In this document: positions 12,349 to 19,348 of the stretch, in pieces
Layout: every line of letters starts with the position of its first letter
Position numbering within the stretch: position 1 is the first letter of the stretch
Source: Escherichia coli
GTDB taxonomy: Bacteria > Pseudomonadota > Gammaproteobacteria > Enterobacterales > Enterobacteriaceae
Length of the DNA stretch: 37,286 bases
Direction: 5' to 3' (one strand)
NCBI RefSeq assembly: GCF_003334815.1
Contig: NZ_QOWO01000036.1
Position numbers and translations under genes: made by a program
Notes under the pieces: generated by a model
What the model was told of the DNA's origin: nothing
The model's input: the letters and a program-made list of their open reading frames with translations, nothing else
Databases searched by the model: none

Positions 12349-13773
12349 TTAATGTTTAACCATGACGTGGCGGACGACGGTGTAATCCTCCAGCCCATAA
12401 AGTGACATATCCTTGCCGTAACCAGAAAGTTTCTGCCCACCGTGCGGCATTTCACTTACCAGCATGAAATGGGTATTGACCCAGGTACAACCATATTGCA
12501 GCCGTGCGCTGACGCGATGCGCCCTGCCCACATCTTTCGTCCATACCGAAGATGCAAGTCCGTACTGGCTGTCATTCGCCCAGTTCACCACCTGTTCTTC
12601 GTTGTCGAAGGGCGTAACACTCACTACTGGACCAAATACCTCTTTTTGCACGATGGCATCGTCCTGTAATGCGCCAGCCAGCAGCGTCGGCGCATAGTAA
12701 TAGCCATTACCCTTGCGCTTTTCACCGCCAGTGATCACTTTGATGTGCCCTGTCGCTTTCGCCTCTTCTACTGCCTTGCTGACGCGTTCGAGATGCGCCA
12801 GCGAGCTTAAAGGTCCAAGCTCCGTAGACTCGTCATCTGGCGCACCAGATTTTAACGTTGCCACCGCAGCACCCAGTTTTTCCACCAGCGTATCGTAAAT
12901 GCCTTTTTGCGCGTAGATCCGACAAGCCGCAGTACAATCCTGTCCAGCATTGTAATAGCCAAATGTACGTACACCTTCGACCACTGCTTCAATATCCGCA
13001 TCATCAAAAACAATCACTGGCGCTTTGCCACCAAGTTCCATATGAGTACGCTTAATGGACGACGCGGTATGGCTGATGATGTGCTCGCCGGTGGCGATAG
13101 AGCCCGTCAGCGACACCATCCGCACTTTGGGATGACCGGTCAGCGGATCACCCACCGTTTTGCCTCTGCCAAACAGTATGTTAATCACGCCTGCCGGGAA
13201 GATATCTTTCGCCAGCTCTGCCAACTTCAACGCGGTCAGCGGGGTAATTTCTGATGGTTTAAGCACTACGCAGTTCCCTGCCGCCAGCGCCGGAGCAAGT
13301 TTCCACGCGGCCATCATCAGCGGATAATTCCACGGTGCGATAGAAGCCACGACCCCCAACGGATCGCGACGGATCATCGAAGTATGACCTTCAAGATATT
13401 CACCTGCCGCCAGACCATTCAGACAGCGCGCCGCACCCGCGAAAAAGCGAAAAACATCGACAATCGCCGGGATTTCATCATTGAACGCACTATGCAGCGG
13501 TTTGCCACAATTACGGGACTCCAGTTCGGCAAAAACCTGACCATTTTCTTCGATAACATCAGCCAGTTTCAGCAGACATTCCGCACGCACTTTCGGCGTG
13601 GTTTGCCCCCATTCGGCAAATGCTGCATCTGCCGCGCGCACAGCAGCATCGACCTGCTCTGCGGATGCCTCGGCAATTTCCAGTAAAACGTCCCCCGTTG
13701 CCGGATTATAGACAGGCTGTTTTTCCCCTTCGCCGCTAACCAGTTCTCCGTTAATCAGTAACTTATGTTGCAT
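12349..13773 (-). CDS. patD: Gamma-aminobutyraldehyde dehydrogenase (aldehyde dehydrogenase family)
   Basis: 474-aa ORF; ALDH catalytic Cys region (GQDCTAA) and Glu motif (ELGGKAP). Confidence 0.9.
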
Positions 13774-13794
13774 AGCATATTCCTGTATCAGTGG

Positions 13795-14589
13795 TTATTG
13801 ACCATTGTCGCCTTCGCGGGTTAGCCACCAGGCCCCCAGGATCGGCAAGGTTGTTACCAACATAACCAGCAGTGCCACCACGTTAGTTACCGGTACATCA
13901 CGCGGTCGCCCAAGCTGATTGAGCAACCACAACGGTAACGTTCGTTCATGACCTGCCGTAAAGGTCGTAACGATGATTTCATCGAACGACAAGGCAAACG
14001 CCAGCATTCCTCCTGCCAGTAACGCCGAACTGAGATTCGGCAACACTACGTAGCGGAAGGTTTGCCAGCCATTGGCCCCAAGATCCATTGACGCCTCAAC
14101 CAGACTCCAGGAGGTGCGGCGAAAACGGGCGATGACATTGTTAAACACCACAACTACACAAAAAGTCGCATGACCGACCACGATGGTGAAAAATCCCGGC
14201 TCCAGATTGATGGTTTTAAAGGCGGTTAATAACGCCAGACCAGTGACAATGCCCGGCAGCGCAATGGGCAGCAGCAGTAACAGCGAAATGGCGTTTTTGC
14301 CGAAAAAGTCTCGTCGCCACAGCGCGGCAGCTGCCAGCGTCCCTAACACCAGCGCAATTAATGTCGCCAGCGCCGCCACTTTAAGTGACAGTGTCACGGC
14401 ATCAAGAATATCACTACGCTGTGCTGCCACGCTAAACCAGCGCAGCGTCAGGCCCTGCGGTGGAAAACTAAACGCCGCATCTTCAGTGTTAAACGCATAG
14501 GCGGCGATTATCAGGATGGGAAAATGTAGGAAAACAACGCCGCCCCAGGCCGCCAGTTTGAGGAAAAACGGTGCGCGTTCAGAGTGCAT
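13795..14589 (-). CDS. ydcV: ABC transporter permease
   Basis: 264-aa hydrophobic ORF with a permease EAA-like loop; overlaps the ydcU 3' end by 11 nt. Confidence 0.85.
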
Positions 14590-17697: not shown

Positions 17698-17941
17698 AAG
17701 GTCTTACTCCTGTCGTAATTAATTGTTCAGCCGCCGTGCCGTAAAAATATCTCCTTGTTTAACCATAGACGGCGGCTTGCAGGCACACCTTCGCCCCTGA
17801 GAAAATTTATTCAGGTTGTGAGCTACCGCGCATTATGCCGTCTGTAAGGTTATCTTCTGGAGTATAGTCAAGGAGTTAGGAAATATGACTGCTATTCGAA
17901 ATTCATATTACCCAATCTAAGAGGAATTAAATTAAACGCTA

Positions 17942-19348
17942 TTACAGCCGTTCTTGAATAAGTTTGCCTAATTGTTTTACCGCCTGTTCTTCACGCTCTC
18001 CCCACTGCCACGCGGTATTAAAACGGAAAAAACGTGACCAGTTTTCACCGGTAGAAAACATTTTACCCGGCGCAATACTGATATGATGCGTCAGTGCCGC
18101 CAGGCTTAATTCGCCGGCATCTAACGGCTCGGGGAGCTCCAACCAGAGAAAGTAACCACTGTCATTATGATGAATTTTCACTTCCGCAGGCAGATAACGC
18201 AGCAGTGCCTGCCAGGCACGTTGTTTACGTTCCGCAAGCTGGCGACGCAGGCGACGAAGATGGGCGTCGTATCGGCGCGTGGAAAGGTAATCCACCAGCG
18301 CAAGTTGCATCGGTGAGCTGGTGGAAAGCGTACTCATCAACTGCAAGCGTTGAATTTTACGTGCATGTTTTCCGGCGGCGACCCAACCAATACGAAAACC
18401 AGGCACCAGACATTTCGAAAACGAAGAGCAATGCAAAACGCCATCGTGGCGATCCCACGCTTTCGCAGGCAGCGGTTTTTCCCGTCCAAAATAAAGTTCG
18501 CTGTAAACGTCATCTTCAATCAGCGTTACGTTGTACTGATTGAGCAACGCCACCAGTTGTGCTTTTTTTTGCGGCGTTAAGGTAAATCCGAGTGGATTCT
18601 GGCTATTAGTCATCAGCCAGCACGCTTTCACCGGATACTCCTGCAACGCCAGTTCCAGCGCCTGAAGATCTATCCCTTCTTTAACATCCGTCGCCACCGA
18701 TAACGCCTTCAGCCGTAGCCGCTCCAGCGCCTGCAACGCACCGTAGAAACAAGGATTCTCTACTATCACCCAATCGCCCGGTTCAGTTACCGCTTGCAAA
18801 CTGAGGTTTAATGCCTCTAACGCCCCGGCAGTAATGACAATTTCATCAGGAGAAATGGTGATGCCCTGTAAGGCATAGCGACGAGCAATAGCCTGACGCA
18901 GTTCTGCGTTTCCTGGCGGTAAGTTTTCAATCACGCTCATCGCTGTGGCGGTTTTGCTTACCTGCGCCAGCGAGCGGTTTAGTTGTTGGAGGGGGAAAAG
19001 TCGCGGGTCGGGAAAGGCCGAGGCAAACGGAACGACCGACGGATCGCGACTGGCCTGCAACATATCAAAAATATAAGTGTTGATATCGACTGCTTCATCT
19101 CGAGTGACTGGAATGACTGGCGCTTTCGGCATTTTTATTGCCTGTGGCGCAACGTAATAACCCGACTGCGGTCGTGCGATAATATATCCCTGACTTTCGA
19201 GCAACTGATAGGCATGGCTGACAGTCATAAAGCTCATGCCTGAAAGCGCCACCTGGTCACGCAACGAAGGCAAACGATCGCCGGGTTGCCAGATACCCGA
19301 CGCAATCTGCTCGCGTAATTGTTCTGCAAGCTGCTGGTATTTTTTCAT
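17942..19348 (-). CDS. ydcR: MocR/GabR-type regulator (GntR HTH fused to a PLP aminotransferase-like domain)
   Basis: 468 aa; N-terminal winged HTH (first ~60 aa) followed by an aminotransferase class I-like region. Confidence 0.85.
   Translation of the reverse strand: MKKYQQLAEQLREQIASGIWQPGDRLPSLRDQVALSGMSFMTVSHAYQLLESQGYIIARPQSGYYVAPQAIKMPKAPVIPVTRDEAVDINTYIFDMLQASRDPSVVPFASAFPDPRLFPLQQLNRSLAQVSKTATAMSVIENLPPGNAELRQAIARRYALQGITISPDEIVITAGALEALNLSLQAVTEPGDWVIVENPCFYGALQALERLRLKALSVATDVKEGIDLQALELALQEYPVKACWLMTNSQNPLGFTLTPQKKAQLVALLNQYNVTLIEDDVYSELYFGREKPLPAKAWDRHDGVLHCSSFSKCLVPGFRIGWVAAGKHARKIQRLQLMSTLSTSSPMQLALVDYLSTRRYDAHLRRLRRQLAERKQRAWQALLRYLPAEVKIHHNDSGYFLWLELPEPLDAGELSLAALTHHISIAPGKMFSTGENWSRFFRFNTAWQWGEREEQAVKQLGKLIQERL

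Follow-up and report, generated by a model that had tools for sequence, protein, structure and literature searches.

Evidence indicating that the MocR-type regulator YdcR of Escherichia coli binds its own promoter and not the promoter of the adjacent ydcSTUV-patD operon

Results

Gene organization of the locus

The window, by which we mean the whole stretch of E. coli DNA that was analysed (37,286 nucleotides), contains ydcR and ydcSTUV-patD, a familiar E. coli locus. The ORF listing gives six open reading frames for this locus, all on the minus strand, with ydcR located 244 bp upstream of ydcS and in the same orientation (Table 1). The RefSeq annotation of these six genes is identical in E. 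coli, including MG1655 (b1439-b1444), and 5399 of the 5426 complete E. coli genomes carry 80% or more of the stretch. The ydcR/ydcSTUV-patD locus is part of the E. coli core genome.

Table 1. Position, strand and supporting evidence of the features at the ydcR/ydcSTUV-patD locus (window coordinates).
Feature	Position	Strand	Basis
patD (ydcW), gamma-aminobutyraldehyde dehydrogenase, final operon gene	12349-13773	minus	ORF, TIGR03374, RefSeq
ydcV, PotC-like ABC permease	13795-14589	minus	ORF, PotC model, annotation
ydcU, PotB-like ABC permease	14579-15520	minus	ORF, PotB model
ydcT, PotA-like ABC ATPase	15521-16534	minus	ORF, PotA model
ydcS, periplasmic substrate-binding protein, own family within PotD/PotF superfamily	16552-17697	minus	NF041888
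ydcR-ydcS spacer, 244 nt	17698-17941	minus	sequence, 63-species alignment
Shine-Dalgarno AGGAG	17707-17711	minus	sequence
Leader block GGAGATATTTTTACGGCA	17737-17754	minus	conserved in alignment
Leader block TCACAACCTGA	17811-17821	minus	conserved in alignment
Leader block AATGCGC	17828-17834	minus	conserved in alignment
TG-n-CTATACT, -10 with C at -13, sigma-S type	17861-17870	minus	sequence, alignment
Conserved upstream box	~17893-17909	minus	63-species alignment
ydcR, MocR-type regulator	17942-19348	minus	ORF, Pfam, NCBIfam models
YdcR operator	19387-19427	minus	motif scan, ChIP-exo overlap, inside EMSA-positive fragment
hicA-yncJ short stretch, in place of ~2.8 kb oxidase operon of other genera	20117-20200		blastn against Citrobacter loci L008, L012 and L018

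The ydcSTUV-patD operon

The five genes from ydcS to patD are tightly packed, with a 17-nt gap between ydcS and ydcT, no gap between ydcT and ydcU, an 11-nt overlap of ydcU and ydcV, and a 21-nt gap between ydcV and patD. They share one strand and one upstream promoter region, and co-regulation has been reported. Promoter-like matches (6 vs 8.1 expected) and terminator-like matches (13 vs 10.1 expected) in the ydcS-patD interior occur at the level of chance. A preliminary description of this DNA proposed that the five genes form one operon combining uptake with gamma-aminobutyraldehyde oxidation. Both parts of the proposal are borne out: the set has the features of a single operon, and the evidence supports the pairing of an ABC importer with a gamma-aminobutyraldehyde dehydrogenase, with PatD clearing the ABALDH equivalog TIGR03374 over its full length (1034.7 bits, cut-off 909.3).

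The same description called the transporter polyamine-type. Resemblance to PotA, PotB and PotC and membership of the PotD/PotF superfamily are in keeping with this, but the equivalog cut-offs are missed by YdcT (PotA, 359 bits, cut-off 482), YdcU (PotB, 119.8 bits, cut-off 348) and YdcV (PotC, 146 bits, cut-off 326). YdcS clears its own equivalog, NF041888, with 814 bits (cut-off 725) and falls below those of the polyamine-binding proteins PotF (62 bits, cut-off 636) and PotD (46 bits, cut-off 582). Because the PotF score is so far under its cut-off, the term holds only as a distant family resemblance. The solved structure of YdcS, 6NLP, has no functional name attached, and its nearest solved relatives are Pseudomonas polyamine-binding proteins and PotF. 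Import of putrescine by YdcSTUV is an annotation-level statement in reviews, and a literature search for transport experiments on YdcSTUV found none. Other roles reported for YdcS are those of a periplasmic cPHB polymerase and of a DNA-uptake factor. We infer that putrescine or a related amine may be the YdcSTUV substrate.

YdcR and its operator

Domain matches made with cluster representatives 98-99% identical to YdcR place a GntR-type winged helix (PF00392) at the N-terminus, followed by a C-terminal fold-type-I aminotransferase-like domain (PF00155). MocR-type models match over residues 4-459, the NCBIfam alignments beginning at residue 2-6. The PLP lysine is K312 in an SSFSK motif, and NPLG and EDDVY motifs are also present. 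PLP binding by YdcR has been measured by intact-protein mass spectrometry (PMC9321722). Among solved structures, aminoadipate aminotransferases and GabR come closest to YdcR. YdcR lies under the cut-off of every named MocR equivalog, namely PdxR (269 bits, cut-off 320), YczR (241, 487), EhuR (186, 480), MocR (181, 650), PtsJ (125, 573) and GabR (124, 600). The initial assignment of the co-directional ydcR product to the MocR type is confirmed by these domain and family models. YdcR thus combines a helix-turn-helix with an aminotransferase-like domain containing the PLP lysine and has a paired-repeat operator near its own gene; the adjacent, usually divergent target operon of MocR regulators is not found in the window.

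The operator is a palindrome, ATAWCAG-N27-CTGWTAT, that occurs upstream of ydcR in exact form in 73 of 80 Enterobacteriaceae species. In the window it reads ATTACAG-N27-CTGATAT on the minus strand, is 41 bp long with half-site starts 34 bp apart, and has one mismatch to the palindrome; it is the sole match with at most one mismatch in 37 kb. The left half-site touches hicB, at the final base of its stop codon. We checked the hicB-ydcR spacer against MG1655 base by base, and a published ChIP-exo peak at 1509941-1509970 of that genome corresponds to 19381-19410 of the window and overlaps the operator. The operator also overlaps the promoter-like -35 (TTGTCA, 19404-19409) and -10 (TAGACT, 19382-19387) elements that a promoter scan places upstream of ydcR, suggesting that YdcR regulates itself, probably by repression. 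Two YdcR half-sites are located upstream of ylaC.

Counting weaker matches, there are six in the window (3.66 expected). Those at 32214-32254 (two mismatches, inside a 551-codon ORF) and 18044-18084 (three mismatches, inside ydcR) were set aside as chance. Other strong peaks in the ChIP-exo data, at ynaE, ydfJ and dinD, are not explained by the palindrome, the best matches there having 4-5 mismatches; on its own the motif therefore does not predict binding, and a missing motif is no proof of missing binding.

Gene neighbourhood of ydcR in other bacteria

Of 80 Enterobacteriaceae, 62 keep the order ydcR to ydcSTUV-patD; where ydcSTUV is lost, ydcR still adjoins patD. This conserved order could mean a functional tie; ordinary synteny combined with internal deletions explains it equally well. 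We do not take the persistence of ydcR beside patD as a sign of coupling, because the spacers in question carry internal deletions that spare parts of the ydcS promoter and leader, as a deletion inside the operon would leave them.

Upstream of ydcR and divergent from it, 72 of 82 loci contain a cytochrome-bd-type oxidase operon of about 2.8 kb that encodes subunits I and II and a DUF2474 protein. The YdcR operator lies between ydcR and this operon in most genera, with other genes intervening in some. The oxidase operon is absent in Escherichia, and in the window hicAB and a deletion scar stand in its place. A word-indexed search with YdcR returned Enterobacteriaceae only, and a representative search gave homologs of 42-55% identity. 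One homolog from outside the group, 55% identical to YdcR, also adjoins a divergent oxidase operon, and a FixG/NapH-like gene was seen as a neighbour of a YdcR homolog. None of the six homologs of 42-55% identity, several of them on short contigs with little context, is located beside a ydcSTUV- or patD-like operon.

Published regulon reconstruction places b1439 in the YdcR/MpaR orthologous group with ylaC as target (Suvorova and Rodionov 2016, PMC5320631). The same work assigns ylaC and cytochrome-bd-type (cydAB-like) oxidase genes to the YdcR group. YdcR fits the type of regulon predicted for this group, which consists of terminal-oxidase (cydAB-like, ccoN), NapH-like or ylaC genes.

The ydcR-ydcS spacer and YdcR binding

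Within the spacer are a promoter belonging to the operon itself and a leader of roughly 150 nt; the 63-species alignment shows that both are kept across genera. The promoter has a conserved -10 element and no good -35. Expression of ydcS and ydcT has been found to depend on RpoS, by 125- and 22-fold (PMC2907692), and ydcSTUV-patD is reported in the Ntr/Nac regulon (PMC6053447; PMC12608037). The conserved upstream box of the spacer is a putative activator site, with Nac as a candidate factor, and a TGCGC-N6-TCACA element at 17817-17832 is a candidate CRP site. A structured RNA or riboswitch in the leader was considered and rejected. An Rfam scan of 12000-20300 gave no match at E <= 1, the consensus fold over 32 species (-7.87 kcal/mol) owes only -0.25 to covariation and shows a single compensatory pair, and the single-sequence fold has a z-score of 0.30; what is conserved is sequence and not pairing.

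Intrinsic terminators are located directly 3' of ydcR in about 30 other species, where they are clear. In the window and in three other loci (L004, L006, L007) no terminator-like hairpin lies after ydcR, and none is recognisable in Escherichia, so that some transcripts from the self-regulated ydcR promoter could read through into ydcS. YdcR would then set a basal level of ydcSTUV-patD indirectly in Escherichia. A ydcR-patD operon may exist in the Enterobacter cloacae complex, which has lost the sigma-S-type promoter by deletion and whose spacers begin inside the former leader; there the two genes are only 141-142 bp apart. We consider such read-through unlikely to explain the locus. A promoter within the spacer itself is strongly conserved, the 125-fold effect of RpoS on ydcS would dwarf a basal contribution, and a literature search for transcript data found none. 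Read-through is in any case compatible with the explanation that we favour below and is not an alternative to it.

A direct link between YdcR and ydcSTUV-patD had been suggested from gene adjacency, together with a gel shift of YdcR on 17698-17941 that would examine it. Such an assay has been published. According to the legends in PMC9321722, a shift of the 189-bp PRydcR fragment by purified YdcR is seen from 50 nM, with the 244-bp PRydcR-ydcS fragment as a negative control, and additions of PLP and putrescine are described for the PRydcR fragment only. The primers given there for the 244-bp fragment match 17941-17698 of the window exactly, and the shifted fragment contains the operator. ChIP-exo in MG1655, run in the single condition of M9 glucose, found 19 YdcR sites and none upstream of ydcS, with signal-to-noise values of 12.3 at ydcR and 8.26 at ylaC (PMC8464067). 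A search of the literature for a ydcR-deletion transcriptome, including Gao et al. 2021, found none.

These data bear on the model in which YdcR responds through PLP to putrescine, GABA or another such amine and controls ydcSTUV-patD directly through the 244-bp spacer. The kept gene order, the control of GABA genes by MocR relatives such as GabR (PMC5320631) and the wording of the authors of PMC9321722, who call the bound region "upstream of a putrescine transporter", all speak for it. However, the operator is absent from the ydcR-ydcS spacers of all 63 species (best matches 3-5 mismatches in 14 positions) as it is from all 12 ydcR-patD spacers (best matches 4-6 mismatches), and the window's spacer contains no exact half-site. 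A half-site-like word in the E. coli spacer, ATAGCAG, has one mismatch, is expected about once by chance by our estimate, and was rejected since it is not conserved elsewhere. The spacer has no ChIP-exo peak and supplied the EMSA negative control, YdcR scores far below the GabR cut-off, no distant homolog adjoins such an operon, and the published regulon does not include ydcS. Direct binding of YdcR at the ydcS spacer is largely refuted, and we regard the model as very improbable. Slightly less probable still is binding in the ydcS promoter region that requires one specific state of the cofactor or effector, such as an external aldimine or a cyanide-PLP adduct, absent from the published assays: MocR factors can shift their DNA-site preference with cofactor state (PdxR, discussed in PMC10790758), the published assays cover few conditions, the additions described in the legend of PMC9321722 leave room for effector-dependent binding to the spacer and some ChIP-exo peaks lack the palindrome, but the spacer alignment contains no conserved half-site pair in any arrangement and its conserved blocks have the look of promoter, activator-box and leader sequences.

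Discussion

Taken together, these results indicate that YdcR binds its own promoter and not the promoter of the adjacent transporter operon. We put at roughly 0.78 the probability that the stretch holds two distinct regulatory units whose adjacency is a matter of descent, and not a regulator with its target. In the first unit, ydcR encodes a PLP-binding MocR-type factor that binds the 41-bp palindromic operator over its own promoter. A position of this operator between ydcR and a divergent oxidase operon is the usual MocR layout, and the loss of that operon from Escherichia leaves ydcR itself and ylaC as the remaining targets in E. coli. In the second unit, the five genes ydcSTUV-patD would be transcribed from their own promoter in the spacer; the PatD dehydrogenase converts 4-aminobutanal to GABA, and the importer, whose substrate is putative, belongs to a family distantly related to PotD/PotF.

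The signal of YdcR is probably not a polyamine. It had been proposed that the family senses amino compounds through PLP, and this does not transfer safely to YdcR, since MpaR of the same group responds to cyanide, as shown genetically (PMC10790758). By analogy with MpaR, YdcR may sense a respiratory poison, for example cyanide, via the PLP cofactor.

A more tentative extension of the two-unit reading, which we hold to be possible though somewhat doubtful, is that YdcR is a stranded regulator in E. coli. Ancestrally it would have activated an adjoining, divergent cyanide-insensitive-type cytochrome bd oxidase in response to a PLP-sensed respiratory poison, the role proposed for Pseudomonas MpaR. 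Escherichia and Salmonella would have deleted the oxidase and kept the regulator, the operator and ylaC, with ydcSTUV-patD a bystander and the Salmonella protein recruited to the virulence gene srfN. Liu et al. are said to have connected Salmonella YdcR with srfN in 2017.

If the two-unit reading is correct, the case shows gene adjacency suggesting a regulation that does not exist, and the comparison of genomes points to another partner, divergent from ydcR and lost in E. coli. For annotation, the results speak against the label of putrescine or GABA regulator for YdcR and against that of proven putrescine importer for YdcSTUV.

Comparison with known systems

The locus is identical in gene order to that of E. 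coli K-12 (ydcR, b1439; ydcSTUV-patD, b1440-b1444), and each of the six proteins matches its MG1655 counterpart at 100% identity. There is no material difference, the window being from another E. coli isolate. The PotFGHI and PotABCD importers share with YdcSTUV the four-component architecture and the superfamilies of all four proteins, but YdcS is only a distant relative of their binding proteins, by the PotF and PotD scores of 62 and 46 bits, and has an equivalog model of its own.

GabR of Bacillus subtilis, which is found with gabTD, has the MocR architecture and PLP lysine in common with YdcR, and in both cases two half-sites are spaced about three helical turns apart. The GabR operator is a direct repeat, whereas that of YdcR is a palindrome, and the 124 bits of YdcR are far from the GabR cut-off of 600. 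The gabR gene and its target are divergent, and the signal of GabR is GABA; YdcR, in contrast, does not bind the promoter of the amine-related operon beside it.

A parallel within the YdcR orthologous group itself (as defined in PMC5320631) is MpaR (PA4132) of Pseudomonas aeruginosa, the cyanide-responsive regulator of ccoN4. MpaR has the same helix-turn-helix and aminotransferase-like architecture, with an essential PLP lysine at K314 where YdcR has K312. It regulates itself, and its targets are terminal-oxidase genes adjoining the regulator. Its motif, ATCTGAT, has a CTGAT core in common with the enterobacterial half-site (PMC10790758). The partner of MpaR is a cbb3 subunit, whereas the enterobacterial partner is a bd-type oxidase, whose adjacent operon E. 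coli has lost.

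Organization of the ydcR locus

The ydcR/ydcSTUV-patD locus is already known; its genes are annotated as ydcR, ydcS, ydcT, ydcU, ydcV and patD (MG1655 b1439-b1444), and at least 80% of the stretch was found in 5399 of 5426 complete E. coli genomes. The tight, co-directional ydcSTUV-patD with ydcR upstream, as in the preliminary description, was exactly borne out by the ORF coordinates and the annotation. From ydcS to patD the junctions are, in order, a 17-nt gap, abutting genes, an 11-nt overlap and a 21-nt gap, and 244 nt (17698-17941) lie between ydcR and ydcS.

YdcR is a MocR-type regulator. 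It contains the Pfam GntR and aminotransferase domains and an SSFSK motif with K312, and among solved chains it is closest to aminoadipate aminotransferases and to GabR. It missed every named MocR equivalog cut-off, including that of GabR (124 bits vs 600). Binding of PLP by purified E. coli YdcR was confirmed by intact-protein mass spectrometry in Pfanzelt et al. 2022 (PMC9321722). Several E. coli assemblies contain YdcR forms of 435-439 residues (protein entries P0003-P0011), about 30 shorter than the 468 of the window.

Features of the ydcR/ydcSTUV-patD region. Positions are those of the window unless MG1655 is named; L numbers are related loci or, for L094-L096, MG1655 regions.
Feature	Position or loci	Strand	Description
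patD	12349-13773	minus	ORF
ydcV	13795-14589	minus	ORF
ydcU	14579-15520	minus	ORF
ydcT	15521-16534	minus	ORF
ydcS	16552-17697	minus	ORF
ydcR	17942-19348	minus	ORF
Conserved box	~17893-17909		E. coli ATATGAATTTCGAATA; 63-species alignment
-10 element CTAACnCCTTGTCTATAaT	17861-17870		E. coli TGACTATACT; C at -13, no good -35
Invariant leader blocks			AATGCGC-N6-TCACAACCTGA-N2-AAATTTC, and GGAGATATTTTTACGGCAnGGCTGCCGC; 63-species alignment
Shine-Dalgarno of ydcS			GACAGGAGTAA; 63-species alignment
YdcR operator	19387-19427		One mismatch; sole match in the window below two mismatches
Replacement stretch	20117-20200		Between hicA and yncJ; comparison with Citrobacter
Terminator after ydcR	L009-L023, L035, L039, L052-L055, L060, L063, L068, L074, L082		First 100 nt after ydcR
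ydcR-patD spacers	L024, L025, L026, L028, L040, L058, L064, L066, L069, L075, L076, L080
ChIP-exo peaks without palindrome	MG1655 1434404-1434430 (L094), 1632300-1632330 (L095), 3817644-3817663 (L096)		Near ynaE, ydfJ, dinD

YdcR binds upstream of its own gene

The preliminary description proposed that YdcR may regulate the adjoining operon and suggested a gel shift on 17698-17941. That experiment is already published: in PMC9321722, YdcR shifted a 189-bp fragment of the ydcR promoter region from 50 nM, and the 244-bp ydcR-ydcS intergenic fragment was among the negative controls. The primers for this control (TAGCGTTTAATTTAATTCCTCTTAG and TAAGGTCTTACTCCTGTCTG) match window 17941-17698. ChIP-exo in MG1655 grown in M9 glucose yielded 19 YdcR sites, including one at ydcR (1509941-1509970, signal/noise 12.3) and one at ylaC (479257-479280, signal/noise 8.26), and none of the 19 was near ydcS (1511410-1511653) (Gao et al. 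2021, PMC8464067). In window coordinates, the peak at ydcR is 19381-19410. In the regulon reconstruction of Suvorova and Rodionov 2016 (PMC5320631), b1439 belongs to a 65-member YdcR orthologous group whose predicted targets are ylaC and cydAB-like oxidase genes in Enterobacteriales and cydAB-like, ccoN or NapH-like genes elsewhere; ydcS is not among them. Salmonella YdcR is said to activate srfN directly, according to a review (PMC7400052).

For 80 species-level loci whose YdcR orthologs are 80-97% identical, we aligned the 160 bp upstream of ydcR. This revealed a single sharp footprint (ATAaCAGTT...CTGaTATA). The palindrome ATAWCAG-N27-CTGWTAT was exact in 73 of the 80 loci, with the spacing fixed at 27 nt except in three loci, where it is 28. 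In the window, the operator overlaps promoter-like hexamers (TTGTCA, TAGACT) and the ChIP-exo peak; at three or fewer mismatches there were 6 matches vs 3.66 expected by chance. In all 63 ydcR-ydcS spacers, the best match had 3-5 mismatches out of 14, which is chance level, and the E. coli spacer contained no exact half-site. The best matches in the 12 spacers where patD directly follows ydcR had 4-6 mismatches. Thus, a direct YdcR-ydcS link is contradicted by both the published binding data and phylogenetic footprinting.

Upstream of ylaC we found ATAACAG and GTAACAG 24 bp apart. The palindrome was absent at the strong ChIP-exo peaks near ynaE, ydfJ and dinD (best 4-5 mismatches), and the motif is therefore an incomplete predictor of binding. 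These peaks may reflect non-specific binding or another binding mode.

ydcSTUV-patD has its own conserved promoter region

Alignment of the spacer from 63 species showed, in order, the conserved box, the -10 element, the leader blocks and the Shine-Dalgarno sequence. A -10 element with C at -13 and a poor -35 is typical of sigma-S or activator-dependent promoters, and from its sequence the ydcS promoter is probably of this type. Consistent with the conserved promoter, a strong RpoS dependence has been reported for ydcST (125- and 22-fold; PMC2907692), and ydcSTUV-patD has been placed in the Ntr/Nac regulon (PMC6053447; PMC12608037).

The ~150-nt ydcS leader (17698-17850) holds near-invariant blocks across genera, including AATGCGC-N6-TCACAACCTGA..AAATTTC and GGAGATATTTTTACGGCA. 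A search for structured RNA in it gave no Rfam match, covariation or unusual folding energy. The leader also has TGCGC-N6-TCACA, which resembles a CRP half-consensus, and a pair of GGA motifs, one at 17751-17754 and one in the Shine-Dalgarno, that CsrA or an sRNA could target.

A clear intrinsic terminator directly follows ydcR in about 30 species (Citrobacter, Kluyvera, Leclercia, Silvania and others). None was recognizable in the first 100 nt after ydcR in Escherichia or most Enterobacter, so some ydcR read-through is possible in E. coli.

The order ydcR then ydcSTUV-patD is kept in 62 of the 80 loci. About 12 loci have no ydcSTUV and carry patD directly after ydcR, including a Salmonella, C. 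sedlakii and some C. amalonaticus; further such loci are from the E. cloacae complex and Superficieibacter. ydcSTUV was lost repeatedly and independently, and the spacer contents show that these losses were internal deletions. In several ydcR-patD spacers, the promoter and leader blocks of ydcS survive ahead of patD. The spacers of the E. cloacae group (141-142 bp) keep the distal leader alone, with a new palindrome CGTGACGTTGTCACG, and a sigma-54-like TGGCACGCTTGCTGCA lies upstream of patD in Superficieibacter and L058.

We considered the kept gene order as a sign of regulation and rejected it. The order is held within one strongly syntenic family and is gone in distant homologs; we therefore treat it as descent.

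With 1034.7 bits, PatD passed the cut-off (909.3) of the aminobutyraldehyde dehydrogenase equivalog, and YdcS, with 814 bits, passed that (725) of its own equivalog, NF041888. YdcS scored 62 bits against PotF (cut-off 636) and 46 bits against PotD (cut-off 582), and YdcT, YdcU and YdcV are PotA-, PotB- and PotC-like with scores under the cut-offs. The earlier label of a polyamine-type transporter therefore holds as superfamily resemblance only. Reviews name YdcSTUV a putrescine importer; our literature search found no transport experiment behind this. YdcS has elsewhere been described as a periplasmic cPHB polymerase and as a DNA-uptake factor, and its crystal structure (6NLP) carries no functional name.

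An oxidase operon is the neighbor of ydcR in relatives

Upstream of ydcR in Klebsiella aerogenes, and divergent from it, is a cytochrome-bd-type oxidase operon (PF01654, PF02322, DUF2474). Of 82 loci searched with tblastn, 72 carry this operon, which encodes oxidase subunits I and II and DUF2474, upstream of ydcR; it was absent in Escherichia and the Salmonella locus. The start codons of ydcR and the oxidase operon are often just 150-350 bp apart, placing the operator in a shared divergent promoter region. About 2.8 kb with the oxidase genes in Citrobacter (L008 6380-9194) corresponds to about 85 bp in the window. The left half-site of the operator abuts the final base of the hicB stop codon (19425-19429), which puts the end of the hicAB insertion right at the operator. 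Some Citrobacter (L008 and L012 9448-9882) have hicAB between the oxidase operon and ydcR, indicating that insertion and oxidase deletion were separate events.

The same oxidase operon, again divergent, lies 152 bp from the gene of a 55%-identical YdcR homolog outside the group, and a FixG/NapH-like gene follows another homolog. Of six homologs examined at 42-55% identity, none had ydcSTUV- or patD-like neighbors. The contig of the 55% homolog also encodes a 504-residue aldehyde dehydrogenase (L086 1584-3098) just past the oxidase operon, on the side opposite to that of patD in E. coli, perhaps by coincidence.

Most likely, YdcR and the ydcSTUV-patD operon are two independent units. The first would be a MocR factor that regulates itself and that has lost, in Escherichia, its ancestral divergent target, the bd-type oxidase operon. 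The second would be an importer-plus-dehydrogenase operon with its own promoter under RpoS and Nac control. In the same group as YdcR, MpaR from Pseudomonas activates the adjoining oxidase gene ccoN4 on endogenous cyanide and needs its PLP lysine, and its motif ATCTGAT has CTGAT in common with the enterobacterial half-site (PMC10790758).
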